From Lama guanicoe (taxonomy: Eukaryota), in the NCBI GenBank assembly GCA_013239625.1, contig MU053611.1, forward strand, positions 1 to 63,477: a DNA stretch of 63,477 nucleotides, in the 5' to 3' direction. The translations under genes were made by a program, and so were the position numbers. Positions 1-29,075 of the stretch are shown here, in pieces. The stretch's first letter is position 1; every line of letters starts with the position of its first letter. The notes beneath the pieces are model-generated. The model did not search any database. It was given only the letters and a program-made list of their open reading frames with translations, and had not been told where the DNA came from.

Positions 1-2896
1 ACTCCAAGTTTACACTAATGATCTCCTGCCTTTTCTTATTACACAGAAGACCTCAGTGAACCAATTTCCTCAACAATTAAACAACCGCCTCACTTCTTCA
101 ATTAAAAACAAAAACACAGCAAACTGACTAGTCCATCCATTAGAAATTCAGTCTGTCTTAATTTAGTTTTAATATATTTGTATGCTGTAAAACACCTTTA
201 TTCATGATGTTGTATATGTAATTTCTGATAAATGTTTATAACAATTCCTCAACACAAAATAGGTCTTATTCTTTAAACCTACTAAAAAAGTTTTCAATAA
301 CAATCAGAATTTCTACCATTATATTAATGTTAAGTTGACCAATTCTCAAGTGCTAACTATATAAACATCCACAATTAATTTATAGGGAGATAAACCGAGA
401 GGTACAAAGAAATACAGAAGAGCTTGTGAGATGTTGTCTAGGAGGCCAAGCTTTGAATTCCTGTCCGCTACTGCTCTGGATAGAAAAGAAAGCTAACTTT
501 ATACGTGAATGTTTAAATATAGCTTGTCTGAGATCTGCCATTCAGAATTTTCACAGAAGTCGTTTTAAATCGGGAGCACCACTGTTACAGCTCCTCTAGA
601 TCTAGGCCACAGCTGTTCACTCAGCCACAGTTTGGCACTCTTCCTTTGCTTTTCATGTTGTGCTTCTCTTGATTCTTGAAACATGATCTGCTTTAAGCTG
701 ACATGGTCGGTGCTCAACTGAAAGCTTCTACTTAACGCCTAAAGACTACGGAGAATGTTACACTGATTTTCTTAGCTATGCAGAAAGCATCTGAGGATGC
801 GCAGAGCTCACTCAACGGTGGTTGCCATAGCAGAGAATTAGCGGCAGTGTGTTCTGTTTACACTGGTAAGATGCTCACATTTGGTTTGCGTGGTGATGGA
901 TTGAGAGCTAAAGGTTTAGAACCAAGTAATCAGTGCTGAGTGTGTGTATTTCCAGGTCTTGAAGTTCAGTGAGGTTCAGAGTCACAACCGGGAAGTCAAC
1001 CAGCAGCAGAGCACCCACGAGAAAGCTAAGAAATTACTGGGTTGTAAATCTCCCAAAGACTAGAAAAGTTTAAAATATAAGTACTTGGAGCTGAAATCCA
1101 ATCTAATTAGTAGAATGCTTAAAACAAAACCAAATAAAACCATAATAAGAGTAATCCTGTGTCCCGATACACTACTGATGACATGGATCATAAACACGGC
1201 CAGTAGGCAGGATGAAAGGCTAATATTTAGAATGATAATTGTCCAAAGATAGGTAAATACTCTGCTGTGTTTACAGGGTAGTTGGGGGAGAGTGGACAAA
1301 TAGCAAAATGCCCTTCCTCAGTGGTAGCCAACCTGTTTGCTTCAACTTTGGAGACAGTAATGGGGATTTTATGTAATTTCTGGTAGGGTAGAATCCAGTT
1401 TAAAATGTGGTTTCCCCAGAGCCTAGAGGCAGCGGTAAGGAAGTAGCACTAACTCAGTGAATTCCGAGAGGAATAAATACGCGGAGAACTGCTAGCCGAT
1501 CATCAATTAATCCTGATAGCAGTTCCTTAGAAAGTTATTTTACTCACAGTAAAACTACATCCAATGGTTCCTGCTTTAACAGAAACACTTCCAGAGAATA
1601 TCTGATTTAAGGATGATGGGGTAAAACTGGCATTTCTTGCTTTCCTTCCTGAGAATTACCCAAAAAGCGATGAAAAACACCAAACACAAAATCAGCAAAT
1701 CAATTTTTATGAAAATGGGACAGTTAAACCCACAAAATAAAAACTAGATTAAAAGGTTGACAAAGCTTGAGAGGATGGAGTAGAAGGGCTCATGGGAAGA
1801 GGAGAAAGAACACTTCCTTTGTGAGTCTTCAGAAGAGCGGGTAGTGCAGAAGGTTCTGGAAGCTGGGGCACTCCCTGAGCTGCAAAACCAAAATCCTTAT
1901 TTACAACAGCACAAGCAAGATGCTTGCTCTTATAGTTGAAATTCCCCTGAACCAAGTTGAATTTCTAAAAGATGAAAAGGGGCTTTCTGAGAAATCATAC
2001 AAGCCATATCTGTGGGATTGTCTGTCCATTTGACAACAAAGGGGAAGAAAGTCTTGGTAGTGTGCACAGATCCATTTCAGAGGCTACATGAAGACACACA
2101 AAACCCTGGGTCAGAAAAGAAAATTTGGCTAGCTGGGAACATAGCCTTAGCTGATGCCCAAACATTTAGCTGTGGCTTATTATGTGCTTTATATTAAGAA
2201 AGAACCCAAAATAAGAGTTCACAATACTCTGTAGACTCAGTCATGATTTTGAACAAGTCCCAAATATCTACAATTATTTAAATTATAACTTCTAACCTTG
2301 TATTTTTCCAAATGCAAATACAGCATCAGGTCGAAATGTTTCATTATCTTCAAGTGAATATAAATACTGACACATTATTATTGAATCTGGATTTTAACCA
2401 TAATAAAGAAAATGGTACATACACACACGCAATCACGCACATGCATGCACACATACACTCTGTGAAAATACCTATATAGTTAAAAATTGAAGCAAATGAC
2501 TCCTTACCAAGTATCAAGTTATTATTTGTGGAATATAAATACAAATTAAATGGGATAAAGACGAAAAATGCTTCCTTTTGTAGCTCAAGTCTCAATGATC
2601 ACGTCTCCATTCATACATATGCAATGAGTGTCTATTCTTCACAGGAGGGAAAAGAAGAACATGGTATCCTTGACTTCAGGTAGCTCACAACTTGAGAAAT
2701 TAAAGTGCTTGAACACATACACACACATTATTAAAAGTACGGTATTTAAACATCAGCATAAGATCTCTCACACAGTGATGTAAGAAAAGGATCAAGATTT
2801 ACTCATACATTTAATCACCATGGTCTTCACTCCAGGCAGTTTAGTTTACTTATTGTCCTTTTAAAAATGCTATCTTAGTAAAGGGAATTAAAATGA

Positions 2897-2998
2897 CCAT
2901 GTTTCATCGAAGCTAAGATACCAATTGTTTGCTGTAAGAGGTACCACAATGTCAGAGACGGTAAAATGTGAAAAAAAAAATGTGCATCTTTGAAATAG
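2897..2998 (-). mobile_element. Tc2/mariner-type MITE, MER104-like (copies ~22505-22606 and ~43992-44093 on +)
   Basis: The opposite strand reads AAGATGCACATTTTTTTTTTCACATTTTACCGTCTCTGA...TCTTAGCTTCGATGAAACATGG, resembling my recollection of the MER104 consensus. Confidence 0.55.
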
Positions 2999-4789
2999 AG
3001 CATTAAGGCTCTTGGATACCTGACACATTCCCCAGTGTCGATGCAGTGCCCAGCCCATAGTGGGTCCTCAGAGCATTTGTTGACTGAATGAGATTATCTG
3101 CTTTCTGATCCTATTTATACTTAACTACATTGCCTTCAAACGTGTCAGGGAGTGTTGTCAACATTTTATATTAGTCACTCAGCCTGTGTGAGATGGAGGA
3201 CTGACCGAAACTTCTAGACACAGGGCTTAGACAGAAACCAGACTGTTTCTGAATAAGGAATTTCTTGTTACATAGAGTCTGTCCTTTAAACAGACACATG
3301 CGTTTGCTGAATGTCTTCTAAAAGATGAGTAACAGTGAAACGACCAAACTCTCATTTCCTAAGTAAATTTTTGATAGTGCATGCAATTTCTGTGGCTTCC
3401 CATTGTTTTAGAGTATCATATAATTTAACACTTTCTATCAAGTACGTGGTTCAGGAAAGTATAAATCATACAAATTACTAGGAACTAATGTAAAAGGAAG
3501 AAAATTTTGTAAGGCTTATTTTCAAAATGTCAAAACGAATGGGAAAAATCATATTCATTCTCAAACATTTTACAGTTGTATTTATTTAAAAACCCTAGTA
3601 GATGAATTCCCACTTATTTTACTTGAAGGTCAAATCATTCAATAGCACTACTTATTTACTTAAACTGACAGCCTGGTAATGACCTTCCTGAAACAGCTTA
3701 AAATTCTGGACAACTGATAATGCACTACAATCAAGTGGCTTTCTAACTTGTATATGCAGCTCATTATGAAAATAAATATTTTTAAAAATGAAATGAGTTT
3801 AATGTTGATACCAAAACCAGTTCTCTACGGGATTTTTACCTACATAGCTTTATTTTTCCATCTAAATCCAAAGTGGCTAATTTCTAACAAAGAAATATCT
3901 GTAACGATTTGCTTGAGTAAATCATAAAGAATCACAGGACTGTGAATTAATAACTTGACTCTCTTCCACTTCATAATGAGTGTATGGTCATTCCAACAGC
4001 AATATCAATTGTTAATAATATGCCTTTAAGTGTTAGCATATAATCTTTGTGTACTTCAAAATTCTGCAGGAGGACTGAATGGGACAAGTAAGTAAGATAA
4101 GTACATTTTGTTAAGATAAAGAAACCTTAAAAAAGTTATATTGGTTGTGATTTTATTTCAAAATAATTTTTATGTGTAACATAGCTAAGGTCAATCTCTA
4201 CTACTAGTAATTTGGGAATAATCAATTCTAGCTTTTTCTAGTTTCTACTAATTGCTCTGTCATGCTGAGGGCTAAAAATCAATAAAAAATCGGACAACTT
4301 GGTTATCCCCATGGAGGACCGAAAAATTGTAAAAGGCAAAGCACTGCTTTGGAAGATGCTTATATATGAGAAGCGATACCAATGAAAAATGACATTTTCT
4401 ACAGCATACGTGATTCGTTTTGACCTGAATACACCTGTGAAGGAATGTGGAATGGCAGAAATGAATACCCTGATTCTGTCACTGGAAAAATTGAGATTAA
4501 GAGAGGTTCTCATTTGCATAAGGTCAAGGCATTCAATGTTATTTTTTAGACTAAACTCTGAATATTTACCCTGGAATAAATTACTCAAAAAAAAAAACCA
4601 AACAAACAAACATTTTTAAGGCACGGTATGTTGTGAAACTTATGATGTCAGAGGTCAGAAATGAACAAAAGGGAATTTGGAAGTTGAAGTATACTTAATA
4701 CCTGTCTTTTGTCTCCATCTTTAGAAGCAAGTGAGAGCCACGTGCAGCAGTCAGAGAGCTGGACATCACAACACCACTTTCATAACTGC

Positions 4790-5435
4790 TGCCTTAAACT
4801 CGGCTTTACCTCCCAGACGTATGCAGACTCCAACCACTTTTCACTGCCTAATGCTACCAGTCAGTCCGAGCCATCAGCATTTCTTGCCTGCACTGTTGTA
4901 ATAGCCTCCTAACTGGTCTATCTGCTTATCTTTTTCTCCCTTGCTAAACACAACAGCCAGAGCAGGCTTTTAAAATGGTATCAGGGCTTCCCCTCTCACT
5001 TAGAGCCAAAGCACGACATCCTTCCATTGCCCCACTGCCTTTCTAACACCTCCTTTTTCAGTTTGTTCGGTCAGCTTGGCCTTAGTGTTTCTAGACCATG
5101 CCAGGTGCCCTTCTGCCTCAGGGCCTTTGGACGTGCTGTTCAGAGGTGCTTGGACTTCTTCAGTGACCTGCATGACTTGGTCCCTCACCTGTCGGGTACT
5201 TATTCAACAGTCGTCCTATCTGACATGCTTGCCCTGCTTCCCCCATTTCCACGTTTTTCTCCTTCACATTTTCTACCATTTAACATGCTGTCTACTTCAC
5301 TTGCTCGTTATAATTCTCCTGCTTAACTGAAATTCCACAAGGGCAGAAAGTTTGGCTGTTTTAAATTCAGTCCTGTGTCCTCAGAGTCTGGAACAGTGCC
5401 TGCCATGTAGATGCTACTCAACAGATATAAGCTGA
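4790..5435 (+). mobile_element. L2 LINE 3' remnant (copies ~20068-20713 and ~41555-42200 on -)
   Basis: L2 hallmarks AATAGCCTCCTAACTGGTCT, CAGCCAGAG and GAACAGTGCCTGCCATGTAG. Confidence 0.8.
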
Positions 5436-5764
5436 AAAAAACAGACCTTAATGGAGAGCCGTTAAAGCTGTGTAAATACGAGAGTGCGTGCAGAAAGAAT
5501 GAGATGAAAGCTGCAAAATAATATGGTGCTCTAGCCTGCTATAGGTGAAGAATGGCATCACTGGTCTCCCAAATTCATTCAGAAAATTCTTAATGCCATG
5601 GGATACATCTTGTAGTCAAGCAACTTCCCCAAATCCCCATCCTACTCACTAAACTTCCACCGTGTAGCTGACTTCTTTCATGCCACTGGTGATTGCCTCA
5701 GACTTGATCACTCACTGGGCAATGCATTAATCACCTGACATATATTTTCTTAATTAAACACATA

Positions 5765-5890
5765 TTGCCTCAATTTTTCCAAATGGGAAAACAGGCTTGA
5801 AAAACCCTAAGCAACTTTCCCAAATGATGTGACTGGGATTTGAACCCACATTTTCTTTCCTCAGAGCCTCAGCTTGTAACGATACTATTC
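5765..5890 (-). mobile_element. MIR SINE remnant (copies ~19612-19737 and ~41099-41224 on +)
   Basis: CTGGGATTTGAACCC B-box region plus the AAATGGGAAAACAGGCT core. Confidence 0.7.
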
Positions 5891-6199
5891 TCCCTCCTAA
5901 TAGAGGCCATTAGGCACGAACTCCCAAGTGTTTCTTAATTTTCTTTTCTGCTATATTGTCAGAAATGTTATTCCTTCTTTGGTTCTGGGTTAATAAACCA
6001 CCTATATTAAGAAGCCCACACTTCTTCTAATTATTTCTTATGTTATCATGAACCTTCAATCTCTCTCTCTACCCTCATGCCTTTGAAGTGAAATACAGAC
6101 CTAAATGTCTCCCATCTAAAATCAAAACAAGAGAATATAAAAATAAACAACAAAAAAAATTGCTTTAGACTGCATCTAAGCATCCTGCATCTCCCTGTG

Positions 6200-6990
6200 G
6201 TTACAGCCTTTATTCTCTACTCCCTTTTAAATCAAGCATGAATTATATGTCTGGGTCATATCTGAACTAGCTATCTCCCCTGGTCATTGACATTTCCTTA
6301 TCAATTCACTCTTATTTAGCCAGACTTATTCTGTGCCCAACCTTCTGCTGAAACTATTCATACTTCCTAATTATGAATGAATGTCATTCTTTTACATATT
6401 TTTTTCTGTACCGTTTGCTACTGCTTAAGGCTCTTTCTTCCTCTTTTGAGATCTTATCCTTCTTTTTGTCCTATGATCTCAGTCTCTCCTAATCCCTTTT
6501 CTGCCTTTTGTGACAGTTTTTCACTATTGCAGGACTACTCTTCCATGACTTGCCCCATTCACAGAGGGGTAACCAGGATTCAGTCCTCAGCTTGAAACTG
6601 CTCTCCTGCTGTCTAATCCTCTTTGGCATTCTCCTTGTCACCCCTACAGCTTTAAGCTCAAATTTTATGACTCCTATTTATGACTTCAAATTTTATGACT
6701 CAAAATTTATGTCTCCAATATCCCTTACTCAGACCTTTCCCCTCAGGCCCACGTCCATACTTCTCATTGCCTATTGGACGTCGTAAACTAGACAGCAACA
6801 GACATCTTGGAATCAACAAGTCTAACAACAAACACATGACCTAGCCTGTCACCCTTCCTCCAGCCAAAAAATCCACTGCTCTGGTTTTTCCTGAATCAGA
6901 GAATGTCCACTTTTCTCATTCAATTACACAACTCAGAAATAAAAGATACACCAGAGACTCCTCCTTTTCTTTCATACCCATATTAAATTG
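6200..6990 (+). mobile_element. L2 LINE internal remnant (copies ~18511-19301 and ~39998-40788 on -)
   Basis: Pyrimidine-rich, with L2-like TTGCCTATTGGACGTC...CATCTTGGAATCAACAAGTCTAA. Boundaries approximate. Confidence 0.6.
6658..6716. repeat. Short minisatellite, ~4 copies of ~14-15 bp (AAATTTTATGACTC)
   Basis: TCAAATTTTATGACTCCTATTTATGACTTCAAATTTTATGACTCAAAATTTATGTCTCC. Confidence 0.8.
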
Positions 6991-7057
6991 ATCCTAAAAT
7001 ACAATTCTGCCTCTCAAATAGTTCTTTATACTCTCATTTTCTATTTTTCCTCTGCTT

Positions 7058-7205
7058 CTTTTTTATTGTGGCAAAATACACATAATATAACTAATAAAAA
7101 ATTTACTATCTTAACCGTGGTAAGCATACAGTTCAGTGGTATTAAATACATTCACATTGTTTTGCAACTCACCACCATTCATTCCCATGACTCTTTTCAT
7201 CTCGT
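7058..7205 (-). mobile_element. Old L1 (L1MA/MB-type) 3' end fragment (copies ~18296-18443 and ~39783-39930 on +)
   Basis: TTTTATTGTGGCAAAATACACATAA...CAGTTCAGTGGTATTAAATACATTCACATTGTT is a typical antisense L1M 3' terminus. Confidence 0.75.
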
Positions 7206-7285
7206 CTTCTTTTTTCTTTAGCTTTTTTAAATTGAAGTATACCTGATTTACAGTGTTGTGTTAATTTCAGGTAGAGAGCAAAATG

Positions 7286-7782
7286 CCTCAGATAGTGATT
7301 GAGTGGTGCCTACACTGTGCTAGGTGCCAGGGAAGCAATGATAAATAAAGCGTGACTCCTTCTCTCAAGTTGCTCACAGTCTAATCAGGGAGACAGACAT
7401 GGGAAAAATTACAATGGCAAGTGCTTTGTTAAACATATTCAGAAAATGCCATTAGGGGAACAGAGGCTGGAGTAGTTTGTTTAGTCATAGTCTATTTTTA
7501 TTGTTTCATGTGCCATGTATACTTTCATTTTTCTCTTTTTTGCCCCCTAGCTCACAGCAGACACCATAATACAGAATATCTTGTCATCTGTTCAATTAAG
7601 TGTTTGAATATATTTCCATGAGAAAAATAACAATGTCTTTGTAACTTTTCTGTAAATCTAGAACTGTTCTAAAATTTAAAAACTTATATAAAAATAACAC
7701 AAAGGACTATGTTTTTGTCTAAAAAGAAGTAATACTGATAAATAAATCAAGTTCCCATTCAGTCCACATATATTTCCCCTCT
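7286..7782 (+). repeat. Direct copy of 28898-29394 (also 50385-50881) embedded in the left arm
   Basis: CCTCAGATAGTGATTGAG...TATTTCCCCTCT matches at offset 21612. Confidence 0.95.
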
Positions 7783-7899
7783 ACATTTTAGGTTATTGTA
7801 AGATGTTGAATATAGTTCCCTGTGCTATATAGTAAATCTTGTTTATCTATTTTGTATATAGTACTCAACATGTATATCTGTTAATTCCAAACTCTTAGA

Positions 7900-8099
7900 T
7901 CCCCTCTTCTTAGTAATTTTGACTATTGTTCTCAGAGCCTATTACCTCTTTCCCACATCCATTTTTTTTGTCTAAAATTCCCCTGCATTCCTCTAAATTA
8001 GTTAAAACCTGCAAGAAGATGCAAATTGATTAACGTGCAGCAGTTTAAACATGAGCACTAATTCCAATTTTGAAAAATAAATGTGGCCATTTTTAGCAT
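7900..8099 (+). repeat. Direct copy of 29387-29586 (also 50874-51073) embedded in the left arm
   Basis: TCCCCTCTTCTTAGTAATTTTG...TTTTTAGCAT matches at offset 21487. Confidence 0.95.
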
Positions 8100-8859
8100 A
8101 ATAGGTTCATTTGTATCCTTTTTTCAGATTCCACATATAAGTGATACAATTTATTTGTCTTCCTCTGTTTGACTTACTTCCCTAGTGCGAATGGATCCTC
8201 TAATTCCAGACTTCTCCTGCTATCATAAATCCTGTCAGTAGCTGATTCACCACCCTACTCTTCCTTGTCAGTAATTGGAGGAGGAGATGACTTACTATTG
8301 AGTAAGTGAAGCAAGGACATTTTGAGTGACTGTCCTCCACATCTGTAGAAACCATGACACTAATTCAAATAAATAAACAGTAGGAGACGCCAGGATCAGC
8401 AACAATAGGTGACTCATGTGTTACCTCACCACAAATTCACCAGCCTTCTATCTGTCTTTCTTGTCTAAGCTTCAGAAAGGCCAGATAGAAGTCTTTAAAT
8501 ACCCTGCGGCGGTGTTAAGATGTCAAGGGGAGAGCAAGACCTGACAGTCTGCTAAGCTTTCCAAACTAGGAATAGCTTTTTTTTTTTTTAATGCATGCGT
8601 GGTATTCTCTTGCAACAAGTATCTTACTAGTTAAGTGTGGCATTAGTCAAAGTGAATGTCAATTCTTAATTAAGAGACAGACAGTAGGAGTTGCATTTGC
8701 TTCTGGTAAATCCAAAACAGGAAAGTTTAATTTACTTGAAGGTTAGAGGTTGGAATAAGTCAAATATGATTCCTTGCCATGGGCCATGGACAGATACACC
8801 CTCTCCCTCCAGACCTACTTGAACAGGCTTCTTTCCAAAAAGTCGCAGGTTCTGTATCA

Positions 8860-9075
8860 TCAGGGCTTCCAGACAGCCTTCTCTGACTCTCTTATTTGAA
8901 TTCAAAGACATCTTTTTGTGATGTCTTTGTACATATGTATCATAACATTTAATACACTGTGTCATAAATTTTCATGAACGTTTCTCCCTACTCCACCAGA
9001 ACATGAAAAGGGGAATAGATTTTATTCAACTTGTGCCAGCAGGGTCAAGCAGTATGAAATTGTACACTGAGCATG
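8860..9075 (+). mobile_element. L2 3' remnant spanning the 8929 breakpoint
   Basis: Degenerate L2-like 3' end (CTTCCAGACAGCCTTCTCTGAC...TATCATAACATTTAATACACTG). Confidence 0.5.
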
Positions 9076-10174
9076 GTGTATAATTGTTAGTAAAATTTAA
9101 AAAAGAGAATGATGCAGGAAAGTGGGGAGGAAAAGGAGAGAGGGAGGGCAGGAAAAAAAAAAGTGACAGGGAAGGAAGAAATCCAGACTGAACTTTTTGA
9201 GGGTACAGTAACTCTCAAACTTAAGTTTCCAAGCCATTTTGACAGGCTAACTCATTCCTATTGTGATATCCTGATGTTACAATGTTGAAAATTATTCCAT
9301 GGAGCAAGGGTGAGCTATTAATTCTGCTCACCCGCTGACAATTACTTACCTTTCTGTGACAGTACAATGAAGTAGTAATTGTAATTTCAAAGAAGTATGT
9401 AAGAAGCTGTCATACCATAACTCCACCGAAGCAACTGTTATGGTCAATTAGGTGAATAATAATTGCTTTAAAAAGTCGTTAAATAGTTTTAATGATGGAC
9501 ACTAATAGCTCCTTTGGAGCTGTTAGTTGGATCAATAATTCATATTTTAAAAACACTGAAAGTACATATTTTTACATTAGATTATTAGGGTTTCCTCAGT
9601 CAATATCTTCTGAAGTAATAGATTTACATAGTTAGCAGTTTTGTAAGTAATTCAATATATTTCTATGTCAATCAAACAGATTATGATAATTAAAATTAAA
9701 CAGCTCACTCCTTCTAAACCTCTCTGATTGATTATGGAAGTAAAAAGTATGTAGAAACTGAAAAAGTAGAAAATTCTTATTACGTTTTAGAAATAATTTT
9801 TTGTATTTAAATAACTATTTCAAACAATCATAAGAAATCACAATATTGCTGGGTTTTAGTCAAATAGTTCTGGAAGTAAATCTTTTTAACCATCTTCTGG
9901 AAAAAGGTAATCACTGAGAAAATAAAATGTTATATTTTCTTTATAGGAATTTTCAAATAAGTTTTTAGTTATATATTATTCTTATATTGATGTTAAATAA
10001 TATGATTTTTATGAATAGGAGATGGAATCAAATTACGAGTCATATAATTTGGGCAATCCTTATTTTATAGGTTTGTAAAATCCCTTAGCTTCCTTTTTAC
10101 CTAGTTCCCATTGGTTTGCACATTTTATTCTGGGTTGTTTCTATTGTATTTCTAAGAATTACAGTCTTTTTGGA

Positions 10175-10410
10175 TTCAGCAAACATTTATTGATTGATTA
10201 GTATGTGGAATACATTATATACATTTTTTTCTTCAAAAATCATATACTTAACCGGTGTAATAACTCAGAATGTTCAATATTACCTTTTTTATTTTCCTAC
10301 TGAAGAAATTTTGGTTTTAAATGACTCTCTCATTATCACTTAGAAGGTGATTCCAGAACTTGGATTTAGTCTTGTGACCCCAGGTTAAGTGTTTTCTCAC
10401 TAGTACAAAG
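10175..10410 (-). mobile_element. MIR/L2-tail remnant (four copies within the palindrome arms)
   Basis: CAGCAAACATTTATTGA start, TTTTCCTACTGAAGAAATT core and CAGAACTTGGATTTAGTCTTGTGACCCC end. Confidence 0.5.
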
Positions 10411-10719
10411 CTGCTCAGAATTACCCTTTTAATACCCTAGAAACTTTGACAAACCACTGTGAATCACTGCCAGTAGATGAAGGATTTGGGACTCAGCATT
10501 ACCCCCAAGTTCCCTTTCCCTTTCTATTTGAACAATGGCATTTAATGCAAAAGGCAGGATGTTAGTGAAGACTTTTCAAATGTCTCTATTGCACATCTTA
10601 ACATGACCATTTAAGAGCTCCTGTTTATTCTCCCTTCCAAATACCTCATTACCTGTGCCAATCCTGGTTTTCGTTTCTCCTTAAATTTACCATTCTTCCA
10701 TGATGTGAGTGCTTACCTA

Positions 10720-10895
10720 TGTTCTCTCTCCCTCCTCTCTTTCTCCCTCCCCTTCCCCTTTTCCCCCCTTCTCCACCCTCTTGTTTTGTCTCTCTCTCTT
10801 TCCCTTCTGATCACGTTTGCATTCTTTCTCTCGCTCCATCGCTTTTGCTCTGTCTTCTCACTTTCCTCTTCTGCTCTCAGATATCACTCTCTCTG
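10720..10895. repeat. CT-rich polypyrimidine low-complexity tract (copies 15162-15337, 32207-32382, 36649-36824)
   Basis: Almost pure C/T run seen directly. Confidence 0.9.
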
Positions 10896-11159
10896 AGAAT
10901 CTTATAATTCCTCATTCATTCCTATATAGAGCAGTCAGTTCAGCTTTATGTTTTATTCCCAAATGTCAGCACTCAAATCTATCAAGGCCATTAAAATATC
11001 ATTTAAAAGGACACTCCATTTAAAAGGAACAGGCACCTAAGAAGGCAGTTTACTGGTACTTTTCTATTACTGAAACAATCTTAGGGTGGCTAAGAACTAA
11101 ACAAACAGCAAACAGAGAGAGAGGGGCAGATTTCCCCTAGGAAGATATTATCGAATGAG

Positions 11160-11480
11160 ATTCTTCCATTCTTATTACATAACGTTGGTGAGTGTATCAA
11201 GAAACATTAGTGGCGATGCAAACTAGGGTAATATTTCTTGAGGTGACTGTGTATGTATCTGTGTTTTAAAAATTATGTATCTTTTGACCTACTAAATTTC
11301 AATTTTAGTCCTATGTTCTAAGAAAATTATTAGATAAACTGCACATTATCTAGAAAATTAGTGGAACATTGTTTATAAGGGAAATTGGAAATATTATCAA
11401 TAGGTAATTGTTTGAGTGAATTATGGTATAATCTAACAGAACATGGTACATTATTAAAGTAAAAAAGTATATGTATATAT
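11160..11480 (+). mobile_element. Ancient L1 (L1ME-like) 3' ORF2/UTR remnant
   Basis: GTTGGTGAGTGT...TATCTTTTGACCTACTAAATTTCAATTTTAG...TGAATTATGGTATAATC pattern. Confidence 0.55.
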
Positions 11481-11574
11481 TTTTGATGTAATATACAAGA
11501 AATTTATTTCCAGAATTTTTTTTTAAATTATGCTCCAAAAGAATAGCTATGGTATGGGCCATTTCTATGTAATA

Positions 11575-12025
11575 TCAAAATAATTAAGGACTATATTATG
11601 ACAGAGCAGGAAAATGAATATAATCATGTTGCAAAGGGACTGTAAGTGTCTCCCCATGAAGTACTAAAGAAAAGCTTTTGATCCCTCATATTGATAAGGA
11701 TTTAGAAGAGTGCGCTGAGCAGACAGACAGCTGCACACCTAGTATCACGTGCCTCATTATTCTGTCCAGTGAAGACACCTCATCTGGCATGGCAGTTGTG
11801 ATTGGGGCCACCACCGGGCAAAATTTATGGCGCTCAACATCATCTAACGTTAATCATTTGGTTTTTGCAAGGCCCAACAAACGTACTGATTGAAGATATA
11901 ATGGACATCACCACCCTAAACCTTTAAAATCTTTGATGGTGCCATCAATCCCCATGCTTCCTTTTGGGATTATTATTGCTTCTGATTTATGATACTGATG
12001 AGTGAGGGAAATTTCAAGGACTTCA
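11575..12025 (-). mobile_element. ERV-L/class III endogenous retrovirus pol remnant: N-terminal RT (second copy 33062-33512; truncated inverted copies ~14307-14480 and ~35794-35967)
   Basis: Manual minus-strand translation across frameshifts gives KSLKFPSLISIINQKQ..GTIKDFKGLG..LQKPND..HKFCPVVAPITTAMPDEVSSLDRI..ARDTRCAAVCLLSALF*ILINMRDQKLF..HDYIHFPAL. This follows ERV-L RT as I recall it (KIVNQKQY..ATIKDLKDAG..VQKTDG..RKLNQVVTPIAAAVPDVVSLLEQI..WYAAIDLANAFFSIP..HQKQF..GYINSPAL). Confidence 0.85.
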
Positions 12026-12029
12026 TAAA

Positions 12030-12440
12030 AGGGGCTTCAGACCCTTCTCAGGTCAGAGTTGCTGCATTCACAGTTACCAGAGAGCAAGAGAATACCGAGA
12101 GGCACCCAAGTGGGTCATTTGTGTTCAACGTACATTCCTTCCTGCCCCCGTTATGTGGACGCAGTACTGTCTTCCTGCTGGTTAGGGTAAATTACTCCCC
12201 AAAAGAAGATGCCTTCTCCTCTTGGCTCCTAGACACAGGAGTACAAAGTAAGCTGCCATAGCTTACAGTTCAATGGGACCTTTATTGTTTCCCCTGGCAA
12301 GATGGCATCTCCTTTGGCGACCAGGATCTCTAACCCTGCCGCGCTTAGAGTTGTGGGAATGGCATATATTAGGTTCCTCAGTGGGTCATTTAGAATGATG
12401 GCCCACTCCCGCTTCTCTTTTTCTTCCTGGACCCACGTCC
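12030..12440 (-). mobile_element. ERV-L pol C-terminal/dUTPase remnant (second copy 33517-33927)
   Basis: Minus strand gives RGSR..EAGV..LNDPLRNLIYAIPTTLSAAGLEILVAKGDAILPGETIKVPLNCKLW..HNGGRKECTLNTNDPLGCLSVFSCSLVTVN. This matches ERV-L HGSRNQGVE..SDPLAKFLLPVPATLRSAGLEVLVPEGGMLPPGDTTMIPLNWKL..HNGGKEEYAWNTGDPLGRLLVLPCPVIKVN as I recall it. Confidence 0.85.
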
Positions 12441-14306
12441 AGAAAAATTACAACTTCTGCCATTATTAACTAAACTTAACTTAAAATTAACCACTGCCAG
12501 GGCTAGTTCAGTTTGCTGAGAACAAGGTCTATTAATGAAATCTAGAGAAGGTACTTGGTTAGAAAAGGAAAGCGGTAGTATGGATGAAAAGGGCACATGC
12601 TGGGGAGAAAACAGGTAATGCCCTTCCTCAACATAAGGATCATTTTGCCAGATTCATCTGTCATGGATTGTGGCCACTCTTTTTTACGCCTAATAAGTTG
12701 TTTGTGTGACTGAGGTTGGTATGGGGATTTAATGATAAAATACATATGAAATTCTTTGAAAGAATTCTAATTGCAATTAAAGTTTTTATCCTGGGAGCTT
12801 TTTTTTTAATGTAGCAATTCAAGAGAGATGGGTGAGGCCTCCAGGAACTAGTTAATACATATGCTAATCATTGAATAGCCAAGAGTGGCTTGCATTTCCA
12901 ACTTTTTCAGATAGTCATGCAATCAATCGATGTGAGAATGTCAGGGTTTTCAGAAAGTTTGAGGTGATTGGTCTTGACAATGACTTCCAGACTTTCCATG
13001 TTGTAAATGGGATCATGTAAGTGATATGACAGTTTTCACTGGGTTTGGAGAGAATCTTTCCATCATTTTGCTCTGCCTTGGGATGTCATAATTCCCATAT
13101 CATTTAGGTCACACCGCTTCACAGAAATTCAGTTAATTAACTGTGATTGCTTGGGATTTGAGCATTCACTAGAATTTGCATTTTTTGGCATTTGGAAGAC
13201 AGTGTCAGTACTGGTAAATGGGTTCTTTGGGCTTTGTAAAGAGCAGAAATATCTCAGAGGGATTCAGAATTTCAATCAGTGTTCACCTAAACCGGTTCTA
13301 CATTTTTGTCCCTTTATCAAGCAAACTTTCCATTAGATGTACTGTCAGAGATTTTTTTATAGTGTGTTTGAAAGAAAACAGTTCTTCATGAAGATGGCAG
13401 CAAGTGTTTCTTTGAGACAAACACACATGCATCAGTGGTCCCTTAAGAGAGCTGGGCAGATGTGGGGTTTTGATGCCATTTCCTCTTTGTATAAAAAACT
13501 TTCAGAAATTTGGCACAGCCACGGACAGAAAACATGGCTGGCCTGGCCCCTCTAAAGTGACCTTTGTTAGTGGCCTGGCTTTGCACTCTGCAGCATCATT
13601 GCTGATGCACTGAGCCAGTTCACAGGCCACTGGAGCTGGGTTTCCTTCTGAAGGCTGGTGTTGGGTGGAAGCTATTGCTTCATGGTGGGTCCAAGCAGTC
13701 CTTTCTCCTGCTTATTTGGTCTTTTTAGATTTTATATCATTAGTAGAGACCTGGATCCTCTGGTTATTCTATTTTTAATATAAATGAGATAGTATATTAG
13801 AATGCATTTTGCGTTTTGTGAGAGAATGCCTTATAAATATTTACAGTTTTATTTGCTGTAGACTCAAGCCCTCATTGTGTTTTTCTACTCTTTTGTACAC
13901 ATACCATGCAGAGTCTAACAACGTGAAAGACTAGTGAGCAGTCATATTAAGTGCAAATAACCATCATGCTTTACAGCGCATTTATATACATGTTTATGTT
14001 GAAATTTTTCTATAAACAAGATAGAGGACAGTACTTTGGGCCATTATAGATTCCATTATCCTTTCAAATACTGAGCATGGAAATAAGTCTCTTTTATCAC
14101 ATGGGCCAGTTGTGGACCAATGATGTCAGTAGGTTCATTTGTTTAGATGTGCTTGATGAGTAATCAGAAGGTGTTACATTGAGTTCAGTGGAAAGGTTAC
14201 TAGGAAGACTGGCTCTTTTTTGTGACTTGGAAGTTATTTGCTTTCAGTCACCTTGTTCCGGCAGAGATGTAGTAAAGCCTATATTTCTGTAGAGCTAAAT
14301 ATTGAT

Positions 14307-17300
14307 ACGTGATACTAGGTGTGCAGCTGTCTGTCTGCTCAGCGCACTCTTCTAAATCCTTATCAATATGAGGGATCAAAAGCTTTTCTTTAGTACTTCA
14401 TGGGGAGACACTTACAGTCCCTTTGCAACATGATTATATTCATTTTCCTGCTCTGTCATAATATAGTCCTTAATTATTTTGATATTACATAGAAATGGCC
14501 CATACCATAGCTATTCTTTTGGAGCATAATTTAAAAAAAAATTCTGGAAATAAATTTCTTGTATATTACATCAAAAATATATACATATACTTTTTTACTT
14601 TAATAATGTACCATGTTCTGTTAGATTATACCATAATTCACTCAAACAATTACCTATTGATAATATTTCCAATTTCCCTTATAAACAATGTTCCACTAAT
14701 TTTCTAGATAATGTGCAGTTTATCTAATAATTTTCTTAGAACATAGGACTAAAATTGAAATTTAGTAGGTCAAAAGATACATAATTTTTAAAACACAGAT
14801 ACATACACAGTCACCTCAAGAAATATTACCCTAGTTTGCATCGCCACTAATGTTTCTTGATACACTCACCAACGTTATGTAATAAGAATGGAAGAATCTC
14901 ATTCGATAATATCTTCCTAGGGGAAATCTGCCCCTCTCTCTCTGTTTGCTGTTTGTTTAGTTCTTAGCCACCCTAAGATTGTTTCAGTAATAGAAAAGTA
15001 CCAGTAAACTGCCTTCTTAGGTGCCTGTTCCTTTTAAATGGAGTGTCCTTTTAAATGATATTTTAATGGCCTTGATAGATTTGAGTGCTGACATTTGGGA
15101 ATAAAACATAAAGCTGAACTGACTGCTCTATATAGGAATGAATGAGGAATTATAAGATTCTCAGAGAGAGTGATATCTGAGAGCAGAAGAGGAAAGTGAG
15201 AAGACAGAGCAAAAGCGATGGAGCGAGAGAAAGAATGCAAACGTGATCAGAAGGGAAAGAGAGAGAGACAAAACAAGAGGGTGGAGAAGGGGGGAAAAGG
15301 GGAAGGGGAGGGAGAAAGAGAGGAGGGAGAGAGAACATAGGTAAGCACTCACATCATGGAAGAATGGTAAATTTAAGGAGAAACGAAAACCAGGATTGGC
15401 ACAGGTAATGAGGTATTTGGAAGGGAGAATAAACAGGAGCTCTTAAATGGTCATGTTAAGATGTGCAATAGAGACATTTGAAAAGTCTTCACTAACATCC
15501 TGCCTTTTGCATTAAATGCCATTGTTCAAATAGAAAGGGAAAGGGAACTTGGGGGTAATGCTGAGTCCCAAATCCTTCATCTACTGGCAGTGATTCACAG
15601 TGGTTTGTCAAAGTTTCTAGGGTATTAAAAGGGTAATTCTGAGCAGCTTTGTACTAGTGAGAAAACACTTAACCTGGGGTCACAAGACTAAATCCAAGTT
15701 CTGGAATCACCTTCTAAGTGATAATGAGAGAGTCATTTAAAACCAAAATTTCTTCAGTAGGAAAATAAAAAAGGTAATATTGAACATTCTGAGTTATTAC
15801 ACCGGTTAAGTATATGATTTTTGAAGAAAAAAATGTATATAATGTATTCCACATACTAATCAATCAATAAATGTTTGCTGAATCCAAAAAGACTGTAATT
15901 CTTAGAAATACAATAGAAACAACCCAGAATAAAATGTGCAAACCAATGGGAACTAGGTAAAAAGGAAGCTAAGGGATTTTACAAACCTATAAAATAAGGA
16001 TTGCCCAAATTATATGACTCGTAATTTGATTCCATCTCCTATTCATAAAAATCATATTATTTAACATCAATATAAGAATAATATATAACTAAAAACTTAT
16101 TTGAAAATTCCTATAAAGAAAATATAACATTTTATTTTCTCAGTGATTACCTTTTTCCAGAAGATGGTTAAAAAGATTTACTTCCAGAACTATTTGACTA
16201 AAACCCAGCAATATTGTGATTTCTTATGATTGTTTGAAATAGTTATTTAAATACAAAAAATTATTTCTAAAACGTAATAAGAATTTTCTACTTTTTCAGT
16301 TTCTACATACTTTTTACTTCCATAATCAATCAGAGAGGTTTAGAAGGAGTGAGCTGTTTAATTTTAATTATCATAATCTGTTTGATTGACATAGAAATAT
16401 ATTGAATTACTTACAAAACTGCTAACTATGTAAATCTATTACTTCAGAAGATATTGACTGAGGAAACCCTAATAATCTAATGTAAAAATATGTACTTTCA
16501 GTGTTTTTAAAATATGAATTATTGATCCAACTAACAGCTCCAAAGGAGCTATTAGTGTCCATCATTAAAACTATTTAACGACTTTTTAAAGCAATTATTA
16601 TTCACCTAATTGACCATAACAGTTGCTTCGGTGGAGTTATGGTATGACAGCTTCTTACATACTTCTTTGAAATTACAATTACTACTTCATTGTACTGTCA
16701 CAGAAAGGTAAGTAATTGTCAGCGGGTGAGCAGAATTAATAGCTCACCCTTGCTCCATGGAATAATTTTCAACATTGTAACATCAGGATATCACAATAGG
16801 AATGAGTTAGCCTGTCAAAATGGCTTGGAAACTTAAGTTTGAGAGTTACTGTACCCTCAAAAAGTTCAGTCTGGATTTCTTCCTTCCCTGTCACTTTTTT
16901 TTTTCCTGCCCTCCCTCTCTCCTTTTCCTCCCCACTTTCCTGCATCATTCTCTTTTTTAAATTTTACTAACAATTATACACCATGCTCAGTGTACAATTT
17001 CATACTGCTTGACCCTGCTGGCACAAGTTGAATAAAATCTATTCCCCTTTTCATGTTCTGGTGGAGTAGGGAGAAACGTTCATGAAAATTTATGACACAG
17101 TGTATTAAATGTTATGATACATATGTACAAAGACATCACAAAAAGATGTCTTTGAATTCAAATAAGAGAGTCAGAGAAGGCTGTCTGGAAGCCCTGATGA
17201 TACAGAACCTGCGACTTTTTGGAAAGAAGCCTGTTCAAGTAGGTCTGGAGGGAGAGGGTGTATCTGTCCATGGCCCATGGCAAGGAATCATATTTGACTT

Positions 17301-20300
17301 ATTCCAACCTCTAACCTTCAAGTAAATTAAACTTTCCTGTTTTGGATTTACCAGAAGCAAATGCAACTCCTACTGTCTGTCTCTTAATTAAGAATTGACA
17401 TTCACTTTGACTAATGCCACACTTAACTAGTAAGATACTTGTTGCAAGAGAATACCACGCATGCATTAAAAAAAAAAAAAGCTATTCCTAGTTTGGAAAG
17501 CTTAGCAGACTGTCAGGTCTTGCTCTCCCCTTGACATCTTAACACCGCCGCAGGGTATTTAAAGACTTCTATCTGGCCTTTCTGAAGCTTAGACAAGAAA
17601 GACAGATAGAAGGCTGGTGAATTTGTGGTGAGGTAACACATGAGTCACCTATTGTTGCTGATCCTGGCGTCTCCTACTGTTTATTTATTTGAATTAGTGT
17701 CATGGTTTCTACAGATGTGGAGGACAGTCACTCAAAATGTCCTTGCTTCACTTACTCAATAGTAAGTCATCTCCTCCTCCAATTACTGACAAGGAAGAGT
17801 AGGGTGGTGAATCAGCTACTGACAGGATTTATGATAGCAGGAGAAGTCTGGAATTAGAGGATCCATTCGCACTAGGGAAGTAAGTCAAACAGAGGAAGAC
17901 AAATAAATTGTATCACTTATATGTGGAATCTGAAAAAAGGATACAAATGAACCTATTTACAAAACAGAAATAGACTCAACAGACAGAGAAAGCAAACTTA
18001 GGGTTACCAAAGCGGAAATGGGAGGGGAGGGATAAACTAAGAGTTTGGAATTAACAGATATACATGTTGAGTACTATATACAAAATAGATAAACAAGATT
18101 TACTATATAGCACAGGGAACTATATTCAACATCTTACAATAACCTAAAATGAAAAAGAATCTGAAAAAGATATATATATACACGTACACACACACACGCA
18201 CACACATAGCTGAGTCATTTTGCTCTCTACCTGAAATTAACACAACACTGTAAATCAGGTATACTTCAATTTAAAAAAGCTAAAGAAAAAAGAAGACGAG
18301 ATGAAAAGAGTCATGGGAATGAATGGTGGTGAGTTGCAAAACAATGTGAATGTATTTAATACCACTGAACTGTATGCTTACCACGGTTAAGATAGTAAAT
18401 TTTTTATTAGTTATATTATGTGTATTTTGCCACAATAAAAAAGAAGCAGAGGAAAAATAGAAAATGAGAGTATAAAGAACTATTTGAGAGGCAGAATTGT
18501 ATTTTAGGATCAATTTAATATGGGTATGAAAGAAAAGGAGGAGTCTCTGGTGTATCTTTTATTTCTGAGTTGTGTAATTGAATGAGAAAAGTGGACATTC
18601 TCTGATTCAGGAAAAACCAGAGCAGTGGATTTTTTGGCTGGAGGAAGGGTGACAGGCTAGGTCATGTGTTTGTTGTTAGACTTGTTGATTCCAAGATGTC
18701 TGTTGCTGTCTAGTTTACGACGTCCAATAGGCAATGAGAAGTATGGACGTGGGCCTGAGGGGAAAGGTCTGAGTAAGGGATATTGGAGACATAAATTTTG
18801 AGTCATAAAATTTGAAGTCATAAATAGGAGTCATAAAATTTGAGCTTAAAGCTGTAGGGGTGACAAGGAGAATGCCAAAGAGGATTAGACAGCAGGAGAG
18901 CAGTTTCAAGCTGAGGACTGAATCCTGGTTACCCCTCTGTGAATGGGGCAAGTCATGGAAGAGTAGTCCTGCAATAGTGAAAAACTGTCACAAAAGGCAG
19001 AAAAGGGATTAGGAGAGACTGAGATCATAGGACAAAAAGAAGGATAAGATCTCAAAAGAGGAAGAAAGAGCCTTAAGCAGTAGCAAACGGTACAGAAAAA
19101 AAATATGTAAAAGAATGACATTCATTCATAATTAGGAAGTATGAATAGTTTCAGCAGAAGGTTGGGCACAGAATAAGTCTGGCTAAATAAGAGTGAATTG
19201 ATAAGGAAATGTCAATGACCAGGGGAGATAGCTAGTTCAGATATGACCCAGACATATAATTCATGCTTGATTTAAAAGGGAGTAGAGAATAAAGGCTGTA
19301 ACCACAGGGAGATGCAGGATGCTTAGATGCAGTCTAAAGCAATTTTTTTTGTTGTTTATTTTTATATTCTCTTGTTTTGATTTTAGATGGGAGACATTTA
19401 GGTCTGTATTTCACTTCAAAGGCATGAGGGTAGAGAGAGAGATTGAAGGTTCATGATAACATAAGAAATAATTAGAAGAAGTGTGGGCTTCTTAATATAG
19501 GTGGTTTATTAACCCAGAACCAAAGAAGGAATAACATTTCTGACAATATAGCAGAAAAGAAAATTAAGAAACACTTGGGAGTTCGTGCCTAATGGCCTCT
19601 ATTAGGAGGGAGAATAGTATCGTTACAAGCTGAGGCTCTGAGGAAAGAAAATGTGGGTTCAAATCCCAGTCACATCATTTGGGAAAGTTGCTTAGGGTTT
19701 TTCAAGCCTGTTTTCCCATTTGGAAAAATTGAGGCAATATGTGTTTAATTAAGAAAATATATGTCAGGTGATTAATGCATTGCCCAGTGAGTGATCAAGT
19801 CTGAGGCAATCACCAGTGGCATGAAAGAAGTCAGCTACACGGTGGAAGTTTAGTGAGTAGGATGGGGATTTGGGGAAGTTGCTTGACTACAAGATGTATC
19901 CCATGGCATTAAGAATTTTCTGAATGAATTTGGGAGACCAGTGATGCCATTCTTCACCTATAGCAGGCTAGAGCACCATATTATTTTGCAGCTTTCATCT
20001 CATTCTTTCTGCACGCACTCTCGTATTTACACAGCTTTAACGGCTCTCCATTAAGGTCTGTTTTTTTCAGCTTATATCTGTTGAGTAGCATCTACATGGC
20101 AGGCACTGTTCCAGACTCTGAGGACACAGGACTGAATTTAAAACAGCCAAACTTTCTGCCCTTGTGGAATTTCAGTTAAGCAGGAGAATTATAACGAGCA
20201 AGTGAAGTAGACAGCATGTTAAATGGTAGAAAATGTGAAGGAGAAAAAACGTGGAAATGGGGGAAGCAGGGCAAGCATGTCAGATAGGACGACTGTTGAA

Positions 20301-23300
20301 TAAGTACCCGACAGGTGAGGGACCAAGTCATGCAGGTCACTGAAGAAGTCCAAGCACCTCTGAACAGCACGTCCAAAGGCCCTGAGGCAGAAGGGCACCT
20401 GGCATGGTCTAGAAACACTAAGGCCAAGCTGACTGAACAAACTGAAAAAGGAGGTGTTAGAAAGGCAGTGGGGCAATGGAAGGATGTCGTGCTTTGGCTC
20501 TAAGTGAGAGGGGAAGCCCTGATACCATTTTAAAAGCCTGCTCTGGCTGTTGTGTTTAGCAAGGGAGAAAAAGATAAGCAGATAGACCAGTTAGGAGGCT
20601 ATTACAACAGTGCAGGCAAGAAATGCTGATGGCTCGGACTGACTGGTAGCATTAGGCAGTGAAAAGTGGTTGGAGTCTGCATACGTCTGGGAGGTAAAGC
20701 CGAGTTTAAGGCAGCAGTTATGAAAGTGGTGTTGTGATGTCCAGCTCTCTGACTGCTGCACGTGGCTCTCACTTGCTTCTAAAGATGGAGACAAAAGACA
20801 GGTATTAAGTATACTTCAACTTCCAAATTCCCTTTTGTTCATTTCTGACCTCTGACATCATAAGTTTCACAACATACCGTGCCTTAAAAATGTTTGTTTG
20901 TTTGGTTTTTTTTTTTTTGTAATTTATTCCAGGGTAAATATTCAGAGTTTAGTCTAAAAAATAACATTGAATGCCTTGACCTTATGCAAATGAGAACCTC
21001 TCTTAATCTCAATTTTTCCAGTGACAGAATCAGGGTATTCATTTCTGCCATTCCACATTCCTTCACAGGTGTATTCAGGTCAAAACGAATCACGTATGCT
21101 GTAGAAAATGTCATTTTTCATTGGTATCGCTTCTCATATATAAGCATCTTCCAAAGCAGTGCTTTGCCTTTTACAATTTTTCGGTCCTCCATGGGGATAA
21201 CCAAGTTGTCCGATTTTTTATTGATTTTTAGCCCTCAGCATGACAGAGCAATTAGTAGAAACTAGAAAAAGCTAGAATTGATTATTCCCAAATTACTAGT
21301 AGTAGAGATTGACCTTAGCTATGTTACACATAAAAATTATTTTGAAATAAAATCACAACCAATATAACTTTTTTAAGGTTTCTTTATCTTAACAAAATGT
21401 ACTTATCTTACTTACTTGTCCCATTCAGTCCTCCTGCAGAATTTTGAAGTACACAAAGATTATATGCTAACACTTAAAGGCATATTATTAACAATTGATA
21501 TTGCTGTTGGAATGACCATACACTCATTATGAAGTGGAAGAGAGTCAAGTTATTAATTCACAGTCCTGTGATTCTTTATGATTTACTCAAGCAAATCGTT
21601 ACAGATATTTCTTTGTTAGAAATTAGCCACTTTGGATTTAGATGGAAAAATAAAGCTATGTAGGTAAAAATCCCGTAGAGAACTGGTTTTGGTATCAACA
21701 TTAAACTCATTTCATTTTTAAAAATATTTATTTTCATAATGAGCTGCATATACAAGTTAGAAAGCCACTTGATTGTAGTACATTATCAGTTGTCCAGAAT
21801 TTTAAGCTGTTTCAGGAAGGTCATTACCAGGCTGTCAGTTTAAGTAAATAAGTAGTGCTATTGAATGATTTGACCTTCAAGTAAAATAAGTGGGAATTCA
21901 TCTACTAGGGTTTTTAAATAAATACAACTGTAAAATGTTTGAGAATGAATATGATTTTTCCCATTCGTTTTGACATTTTGAAAATAAGCCTTACAAAATT
22001 TTCTTCCTTTTACATTAGTTCCTAGTAATTTGTATGATTTATACTTTCCTGAACCACGTACTTGATAGAAAGTGTTAAATTATATGATACTCTAAAACAA
22101 TGGGAAGCCACAGAAATTGCATGCACTATCAAAAATTTACTTAGGAAATGAGAGTTTGGTCGTTTCACTGTTACTCATCTTTTAGAAGACATTCAGCAAA
22201 CGCATGTGTCTGTTTAAAGGACAGACTCTATGTAACAAGAAATTCCTTATTCAGAAACAGTCTGGTTTCTGTCTAAGCCCTGTGTCTAGAAGTTTCGGTC
22301 AGTCCTCCATCTCACACAGGCTGAGTGACTAATATAAAATGTTGACAACACTCCCTGACACGTTTGAAGGCAATGTAGTTAAGTATAAATAGGATCAGAA
22401 AGCAGATAATCTCATTCAGTCAACAAATGCTCTGAGGACCCACTATGGGCTGGGCACTGCATCGACACTGGGGAATGTGTCAGGTATCCAAGAGCCTTAA
22501 TGCTCTATTTCAAAGATGCACATTTTTTTTTTCACATTTTACCGTCTCTGACATTGTGGTACCTCTTACAGCAAACAATTGGTATCTTAGCTTCGATGAA
22601 ACATGGTCATTTTAATTCCCTTTACTAAGATAGCATTTTTAAAAGGACAATAAGTAAACTAAACTGCCTGGAGTGAAGACCATGGTGATTAAATGTATGA
22701 GTAAATCTTGATCCTTTTCTTACATCACTGTGTGAGAGATCTTATGCTGATGTTTAAATACCGTACTTTTAATAATGTGTGTGTATGTGTTCAAGCACTT
22801 TAATTTCTCAAGTTGTGAGCTACCTGAAGTCAAGGATACCATGTTCTTCTTTTCCCTCCTGTGAAGAATAGACACTCATTGCATATGTATGAATGGAGAC
22901 GTGATCATTGAGACTTGAGCTACAAAAGGAAGCATCTTTCATCTTTATCCCATTTAATTTGTATTTATATTCCACAAATAATAACTTGATACTTGGTAAG
23001 GAGTCATTTGCTTCTATTTTTAACTATATAGGTATTTTCACAGAGTGTATGTGTGCATGCATGTGCGTGATTGCGTGTGTGTATGTACCATTTTCTTTAT
23101 TATGGTTAAAATCCAGATTCAATAATAATGTGTCAGTATTTATATTCACTTGAAGATAATGAAACATTTCGACCTGATGCTGTATTTGCATTTGGAAAAA
23201 TACAAGGTTAGAAGTTATAATTTAAATAATTGTAGATATTTGGGACTTGTTCAAAATCATGACTGAGTCTACAGAGTATTGTGAACTCTTATTTTGGGTT

Positions 23301-25502: not shown

Positions 25503-26470
25503 GAAGAGCATCTTTTTACAAAGGTAATAAGCCCAGAATATGTAAAGACAAAATACAGACATATGTGACTATATACAAAAGAATTAAAAGGTATGATACA
25601 TACATTATAAACAGAGTCCAACGACATGTGATAGACTGAGAAAAATATTGGCAAAATATGGGTCAGATAAAAGGTCAGCAATCCAGCCACCACCAAATGG
25701 CTATAGATCAAGAAGAAAAAGACAACCAACCTAAAGAAATACCAATCAATTATATGAGTAAGAAGCTTATAGATGTAGAAATCAAAATGTTCAGTGAATC
25801 TATGATTTCCCAAGTTTATTCATAGCCTGAGAAATGCAAATAAAAGGAAGAATATGGTGCTATTTTTAAACTATCAGACTGGTCAAACTTTGAGATATAT
25901 CGTCCACTGCTAGTAAAAACATGGATAAATGTACATCCTACTTTACTGCTAGTCAGAGTGTAAATTGCTGCAAACATTTTGGAAGCTAGTCTGGGAATAT
26001 CTATTAAAACTCATATTAAGTGAACCTTTTGAAATGGCCCAGTTTGGGAAGCATTCCCATAGCAATTAAATAATTAGGATCTAAGAATACGCATACACAG
26101 ACACACACTTGGATATTATCGTAGCATTATCCATAGGAAAAATTAGTACAGAAAACAACAAAAATAGACAAGGGTAGGTAAATGATTGAATCAAAGGGTG
26201 TTGCTTTCATTCAATGTGATAGTCAACAATTATTAATAAGTATGTGTTTAATCAATAGCTATTCAAATGGAAGAGTACCCAGGATATACTGTTAAAAGGA
26301 AAAAGAAGTTGCAATATGTGTACAAAATGGTCTGGTTTTAATAAAACAAATAATTGCAAAAATAAGGGCACCATTCATATGGGTTTATAGGTTTGTGTAT
26401 ATTTTTTTAAGCATGAGGAAAAGAGTGTATGGATAACGTCACTAAAACTGGTAATTTTGCAGACAGGGAT
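25470..26470 (+). mobile_element. Ancient L1M ORF2 3' end/3' UTR remnant (copy ~46957-47957)
   Basis: GACTGAGAAAAATATTGGCAA, GAGAAATGCAAATAAAA and ACTGCTAGTCAGAGTGTAAATTG..CATTTTGGAA. Confidence 0.75.
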
Positions 26471-26584
26471 GAGAATTTGAATACAGAATCCATTTGCAAC
26501 TTGAGAAAAGAATTTAATAAATAGAACCTTAAATATAAATATTTAATAGAAGTAAACAGCATTTCTCTACTTGGCACTTATTTT

Positions 26585-28904: not shown

Positions 28905-29075
28905 TAGTGATTGAGTGGTGCCTACACTGTGCTAGGTGCCAGGGAAGCAATGATAAATAAAGCGTGACTCCTTCTCTCAAGTTGCTCACAGTCTAATCAG
29001 GGAGACAGACATGGGAAAAATTACAATGGCAAGTGCTTTGTTAAACATATTCAGAAAATGCCATTAGGGGAACAG
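28905..29075 (-). mobile_element. L2 3' remnant (copies ~50392-50562 and ~7293-7463)
   Basis: GTGCCTACACTGTGCTAGGTGCCAGGGA..CTCTCAAGTTGCTCACAGTCTAATCAGGGAGACAGAC. Confidence 0.7.

Follow-up and report, generated by a model that had tools for sequence, protein, structure and literature searches.

We analysed a window of 63,477 nucleotides (contig MU053611.1 of Lama guanicoe) and found that an 814-base patchwork within it, at positions 7286-8099, is probably not real DNA but a chimera made by an assembler or polisher, which sits at the edge of a probably real and recent rearrangement of the inverted-triplication type. As judged from the assembled sequence, it is highly probable that the patchwork is an artefact of one kind or another.

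Composition of the mosaic

Four junctions split the patchwork into pieces that were mapped by self-BLAST and by inspection of junction views. In the following, template a is the inverted flank that bears an L1 fragment, template b is the forward flank, and the joins are numbered M1 to M4. The pieces and their templates are:

1-7285, minus strand: left arm, equal to inverted 25502 to 18216; runs off the window edge
7285/7286: junction M1, 431 off the diagonal, with a 12/20 microhomeology
7286-7782, plus strand: mosaic piece b1, equal to 28898-29394 (497 bp, exact), which lies 1,516 to 1,020 bases left of the repeat
7783: untemplated A at M2, where both templates have T
7784-7898, minus strand: mosaic piece a1, equal to inverted 18151 to 18037 (115 bp, 100%), from an old L1 3'-end fragment
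7899: untemplated A at M3, where both templates have T; M3 re-enters b 8 bases before the exit point
7900-8099, plus strand: mosaic piece b2, equal to 29387-29586 (200 bp, 100%), at the interior tandem offset of 21,487
8099/8100: junction M4, blunt and exactly on the diagonal
8100-11750, minus strand: the arm resumes, equal to inverted 17957 to 14307 (3,651 bp, 100%)
8100-8926, minus strand: flank a, 827 bp equal to inverted 17957-17131, unrelated to flank b at the same offset
17865-18279, plus strand: template a, the old L1 3'-end fragment in unbroken form
28898-30414, plus strand: template b, which flanks tandem copy 2 on the left; a second copy lies at 50385-51901

The order of the pieces, the extra As, the double use of 8 bases and the losses of L1 sequence had been described in an earlier note on this DNA, made from the letters alone, and its description proved right to the base. 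All pieces are exact copies of flank a or flank b, and self-BLAST returned no other source. The forward template 29387-29394 (TCCCCTCT) is copied twice in the mosaic, and two stretches of the L1 fragment are missing from it, namely 18152-18215 (64 bp, inside which a (TA)n(CA)n tract is located) and 17958-18036 (79 bp). The window consists of A, C, G and T only and thus contains no N gap, although a gap that was filled is still conceivable.

The unbroken fragment matches the 3' end of a long L1 that is found later in the window (two HSPs, 17877-18186, 66-69% identity). It aligns through all three lost or cut points, which indicates that the unbroken order is old and that the mosaic is the derived state. 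On the plus strand at ~55240-61530 lies an element that, from the motifs we recognised, we take to be a near-full-length decayed L1; its ORF1- and ORF2-like frames are broken and it carries short internal tandem duplications (e.g. 59047-59118).

Two other explanations of individual features were tried and rejected. The lost pieces might have been low-complexity gaps that were filled later, but their dinucleotide entropy, at the 12th and 16th percentiles, does not support this. L1 retrotransposition with an 8-bp target-site duplication does not apply either: the insert exactly reproduces an inner part of a decayed fragment located 10 kb away, and comes without poly(A).

The surrounding repeat

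The mosaic is located to the left of a large tandem repeat, of which the following features are relevant:

8927-30413, plus strand: tandem unit copy 1 (21,487 bp), made up of inverted P (8927-11750), a spacer (11751-14306, 2,556 bp) and segment A (14307-30414)
30414-51901, plus strand: second copy of the tandem unit, 99.96% identity with copy 1; followed by single-copy sequence from 51902
14306/14307: J1, putative novel fold-back junction with a 2,556-bp spacer, identified by exclusion; second copy at 35793/35794
30413-30423: J2, novel junction that joins 30414 to inverted 17128, with TT as a 2-bp microhomology and, 8 bases further downstream, the loss of 1 bp
11737-11844, minus strand: decayed frame with database homolog P0002 (47 aa, 67% identity over 36 aa), the alignment spanning 11750/11751

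Segment A opens with P, and from 14307 onwards the order is A, J2, inverted P plus spacer, J1, A and unique sequence. Together, J1 and J2 account for the remaining repeats of the window, in the pattern of an inverted triplication, and the two fold-backs have spacers of 2,556 bp and ~13.3 kb. J2 must be new, because in every other copy P is followed by the remainder of A and the sequence is single-copy again from 51902; the similarity between the two sides of J2 is 7/20. In the inverted P and spacer behind J2, private differences occur at 30642-30643 (a poly(A) longer by 2) and as SNPs at 30899 and 33333.

The decayed frame offers modest but independent support for the adjacency 11750/11751 being ancestral: the match to P0002 extends four residues beyond the end of the query frame (11749), of which two are identical and two similar. 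If this adjacency is old, then J1 (14306/14307) is new. A search for a pre-existing pair of inverted repeats at J1 found no homology on the one side open to comparison; the sequence that originally followed the spacer is located outside the window. With respect to the decayed frame itself, P0001, one of the two HMMER hits, was put aside since it yielded weak alignments only (E 0.4-0.7), and searches at 11.6-12.0 kb returned no Pfam family for two frames and no hit among PDB sequences. By eye, the decayed minus-strand frames at 11630-12400 are similar to the remnant of an ERV-L-type dUTPase and reverse transcriptase, and 29778-30282, likewise by eye, resembles an old MLT1-type solo LTR on the minus strand.

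The J1/J2 rearrangement (16-21 kb) may be a real and as yet unannotated structural variant of camelids, and possibly a recent one, with copies that are more than 99.9% identical. A published camelid report of the locus was not found in a literature search conducted mostly outside subscription journals. Within these 16-21 kb no intact gene was noticed in a non-systematic search for exons.

Similarity and register of the joins

Flanks a and b are unrelated over the stretch in which the switches occur. Their ungapped identity amounts to 26-29% on diagonals -6 to +6 and BLAST found no significant match between them (best E 0.10). Similarity at the joins was 12/20 for M1 (null fraction 0.0026), 8/20 for M2, 9/20 for M3 and 7/20 for M4, so that only one of the four joins (M1) exceeds chance, with M2 and M4 at chance level. 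The microhomeology that had been noticed earlier at the first join is thereby borne out, and comes without any exactly shared base. When a was aligned to b globally and with gaps, under 10 scoring schemes, none of the alignments passed through the observed switch columns, and the observed joins were likewise not recovered when the block M2-M4 was aligned under 7 scoring schemes. As no gapped alignment hits the switch columns, their placement looks arithmetic rather than alignment-driven.

The arithmetic becomes apparent when the joins are placed relative to the repeat. On the diagonal of the repeat interior, the coordinates of a and b add up to 47,544 in every column, and the offsets from this diagonal are -431 for M1, +2 or +3 for M2, -122 for M3, 0 for M4 and -1 for J2. 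The two switches from b to a (M4 and M2) thus take place 827 and ~1,020 bases beyond the end of homology and nevertheless 0 and 2-3 bases off the diagonal, whereas the two switches from a to b (M1 and M3) are 431 and 122 bases away from it. The chance that any two of four switches fall within 3 bases of the diagonal is ~7e-5 when positions within ±1 kb are considered and ~7e-3 within ±100 bp; the closeness of M2 and M4 to the diagonal therefore exceeds chance. The earlier note had counted three nearly equal coordinate sums, of which two can be retained as independent coincidences, as the third belongs to J2, the tandem junction that defines the diagonal. Its placement of 7900-8099 at the tandem offset of 21,487 was recovered by self-BLAST. 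The stretch of unrelated sequence that separates this piece from the repeat does exist; its length is 827 bp (8100-8926), and the 829 bp given before is obtained only by including the 2-bp junction microhomology. M4 fits the interior offset of 21,487 and not the junction-local values of 21,485 or 21,486, a weak distinction because homopolymer noise is equally large.

Divergence of the left arm

Over its 7,285 bp the left arm shows 14 difference events against tandem copy 1 and 12 against copy 2 (0.17-0.19%), whereas the tandem copies differ from each other by 2 events in 16,108 bp (0.012%), both within the part that matches the arm. That the arm diverges more from the copies than these do from each other is as expected if it represents the other homolog, which is the likely interpretation. 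Beyond the mosaic the picture changes: 8100-11750 shows no difference from the tandem copies in 3,651 bp. This haplotype step at the mosaic has a P of ~5e-4 when compared to the whole arm (computed for 15 events) but is not significant when compared to the nearest 4.7 kb of arm, which holds 3 events (P of 0 in 3,651 bp = 0.10). The arm contains single-copy 31-mers. Relative to both tandem copies it carries a substituted block of 23 bp (890-912), for which no long match was found elsewhere in the window, and one of 4 bp (1789-1792). The private differences of copy 1 are at 20917-20918 and 21780, where the arm agrees with copy 2.

Origin of the mosaic

Assemblers of the overlap-layout type, and some polishers, position reads by their offsets and accept unaligned ends of ~1 kb, as in miniasm-type graphs. 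Base pairing cannot keep register across 800-1,000 unrelated bases, which the offset arithmetic of an assembler or polisher can, and this argues for a chimera made by software. Reads across J2 would agree with the contig from 8927 towards the right and have flank b at their left end, whereas reads of the unrearranged orientation would bring flank a. The software would place both kinds by the offset of their long shared overlap, while tolerating unaligned ends of up to ~1.5 kb, and bases drawn from one kind of read and then from the other would produce homology-free switches on the diagonal (M2 and M4). M1 and M3, the joins that step back, could be stitching scars of the same step, as could the two filler As; both fillers are A where both templates have T, a weak hint of a default letter. 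The divergent arm, representing the other homolog, would have been joined in through the shared block of inverted P plus spacer. In this account we infer the software origin, the homolog identity of the arm and a true structure with a single J1; directly observed are the map of the pieces, their register, the missing homology and the divergence of the arm.

The first of the two readings in the earlier note was also a chimera, formed from the two alternative left flanks during consensus building or polishing; the homology-free switches in register, the A fillers and the allele-level divergence of the arm all favour this reading, short of proof. When overhang-tolerant read tiling was simulated from coordinates alone, most runs produced 3-7 switches, but the simulation is built such that all of them fall on the diagonal, and hence provides no evidence. 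Plain tiling predicts that all four joins are on the diagonal, and neither the tiling simulation nor the global alignments reproduced the off-diagonal joins M1 and M3. A relevant report of this type of assembly scar was not found in the literature, which was searched mostly outside subscription journals. Among the sequencing runs listed, 19 of 24 (8 studies) contain a fraction of 0.89-0.95 of the 1,024 words sampled from 4401-14400 and none contains more; the bulk of this sequence therefore exists in unrelated samples. The mosaic junctions make up 122 of the 9,970 31-mers (1.2%), which is below the resolution of these word shares.

We consider it unlikely that the mosaic is a real chain of templated insertions (MMBIR/FoSTeS) at a single junction within a complex rearrangement of a rolling-circle-like type. 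In that case an unstable 3' end would have hopped four times between the fold-back ends at J2 before it resumed, and the closeness to the diagonal would be part luck and part proximity at the base of the stem formed by P and inverted P. Such a chain is in line with the origin of all pieces from within ~1.6 kb (1,516 bases) of the J2 ends, with the microhomeology at M1, and with the resumption of b 8 bases before its exit, an 8-bp duplication on either side of an inserted piece and 1-bp insertions being known at real junctions. J2 with its 2-bp microhomology and nearby 1-bp loss resembles a typical replicative junction (cf. PMC11293582, Table 1), and a repeated junction has been documented in a quadruplication (PMC4352052). 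The chain leaves unexplained why register is kept to 0 and 2-3 nt when the nearest pairing is 827 and ~1,020 nt away, and has to accommodate three of four joins without significant similarity as well as an added inter-homolog step for the divergence of the arm.

An artefact could also have arisen in the laboratory, from a heteroduplex or amplification molecule with one strand per repeat copy and a consensus that alternates between the strands. Near-identical repeats, both direct and inverted, abound at the locus, and such a molecule would presumably also give switches in register with the shared repeat, yet a single read would have to outweigh normal coverage, which makes this origin quite improbable.

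Even less credit can be given to the possibility that the mosaic is real germline DNA that arose by homology-free switching in nucleotide register across 0.8-1 kb, whether the partners were coupled sister forks of one bubble near 23.8 kb or the two ends of a fold-back loop. The more specific form of this idea, registered switching without homology between the two forks of one replication bubble centred at ~23,771, is the least probable of the readings considered. The directions of travel fit diverging forks, with b copied rightwards and a leftwards, and both b-to-a switches are symmetric about ~23,772, but this symmetry restates the arithmetic of the tandem offset and is set by J2. On two occasions the forks would have to be matched to 0-3 nt at a distance of ~6 kb from the origin, having stepped back by 431 and 122 nt in the meantime. 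A scan of 14307-31306 found neither a CpG island nor a G4 motif, a weak argument as mammalian origins cannot be called from sequence, and the literature search found no paper that describes such switching. The fork switch of ODIRA has a different geometry, with 5-6 bp inverted repeats 40-80 bp apart at one fork (PMC10766186). The second reading of the earlier note, serial switching between sister forks equidistant from ~23,771, has thus gained no positive support: the equal sums are two and not three, and the vicinity of 23.8 kb is devoid of CpG islands and G4 motifs (weak evidence, as stated).

Implications

If the mosaic is an artefact, then exact-copy mosaics that switch on the ungapped diagonal of a neighbouring repeat are diagnostic of assembly joins, and can be mistaken for templated insertions by MMBIR; in that case neither the left arm of this contig nor its copy number is to be trusted without the reads. 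If, on the other hand, the mosaic is real, it would represent a new kind of registered template switch, and such switching, if true, would be physical evidence that two templates can keep register without base pairing. The J1/J2 rearrangement is worth genotyping as a possible camelid variant.

Comparison with known systems

The templated insertions of MMBIR/FoSTeS resemble the mosaic in that short pieces are copied from near the breakpoints and in the microhomeology at M1, and differ from it in that M2-M4 lack significant similarity (PMC6902434). In that source, microhomeology is found at about one third of the real PLP1 join-points and is a signature of real template switches, and blunt joins and insertions also occur in real cases (Table 2). 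A literature search returned no described case of MMBIR/FoSTeS switches that keep exact register with a repeat at a distance of 0.8-1 kb.

ODIRA generates an inverted triplication from template switches at forks, in which SNPs from the two homologs may be combined (Brewer, Dunham and Raghuraman 2024, PMC10766186); according to section 7, homolog SNPs in a 2:1 mix can be real. However, its switches go from leading to lagging strand of a single fork and use short inverted repeats that lie 40-80 bp apart. Instead of 5-6 bp inverted repeats at that distance, we found spacers of 2,556 bp and ~13.3 kb, which (as 2.6 kb and 13.3 kb) are within the range of ODIRA secondary junctions (1.1-34.9 kb) and outside that of the primary ones. 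Switches from fork to fork are not among the predictions of ODIRA.

The stretch 14307-63477 is similar to the DUP-TRP/INV-DUP rearrangements (Grochowski et al. 2024, PMC11293582; Beck et al. 2015, PMC4352052): it has two junctions in cis and a central inverted segment, as assembled and with the ancestral left flank lying outside the window, and J2 shows a 2-bp microhomology with a nearby 1-bp loss (PMC11293582). Insertions of 1-2 bp occur at real junctions (PMC11293582, Table 1), and a junction may be present twice in a real rolling-circle event (PMC4352052). The present case is far smaller (a 16-kb duplicated segment), contains J1 twice and has an extra inverted arm. This likeness concerns the surroundings and not the mosaic.

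Finally, the assembly of both alleles as if they were paralogs, false heterotype duplication, is a documented error (Ko et al. 2022, PMC9516828). In the cases of that source, gaps or depth gaps typically lie between the duplicates, whereas here the two flanks are interleaved in a mosaic and an N gap is absent. What the contig shares with such duplications is a near-identical extra copy, diverged at the level of alleles, on the same contig and beside the other copies.
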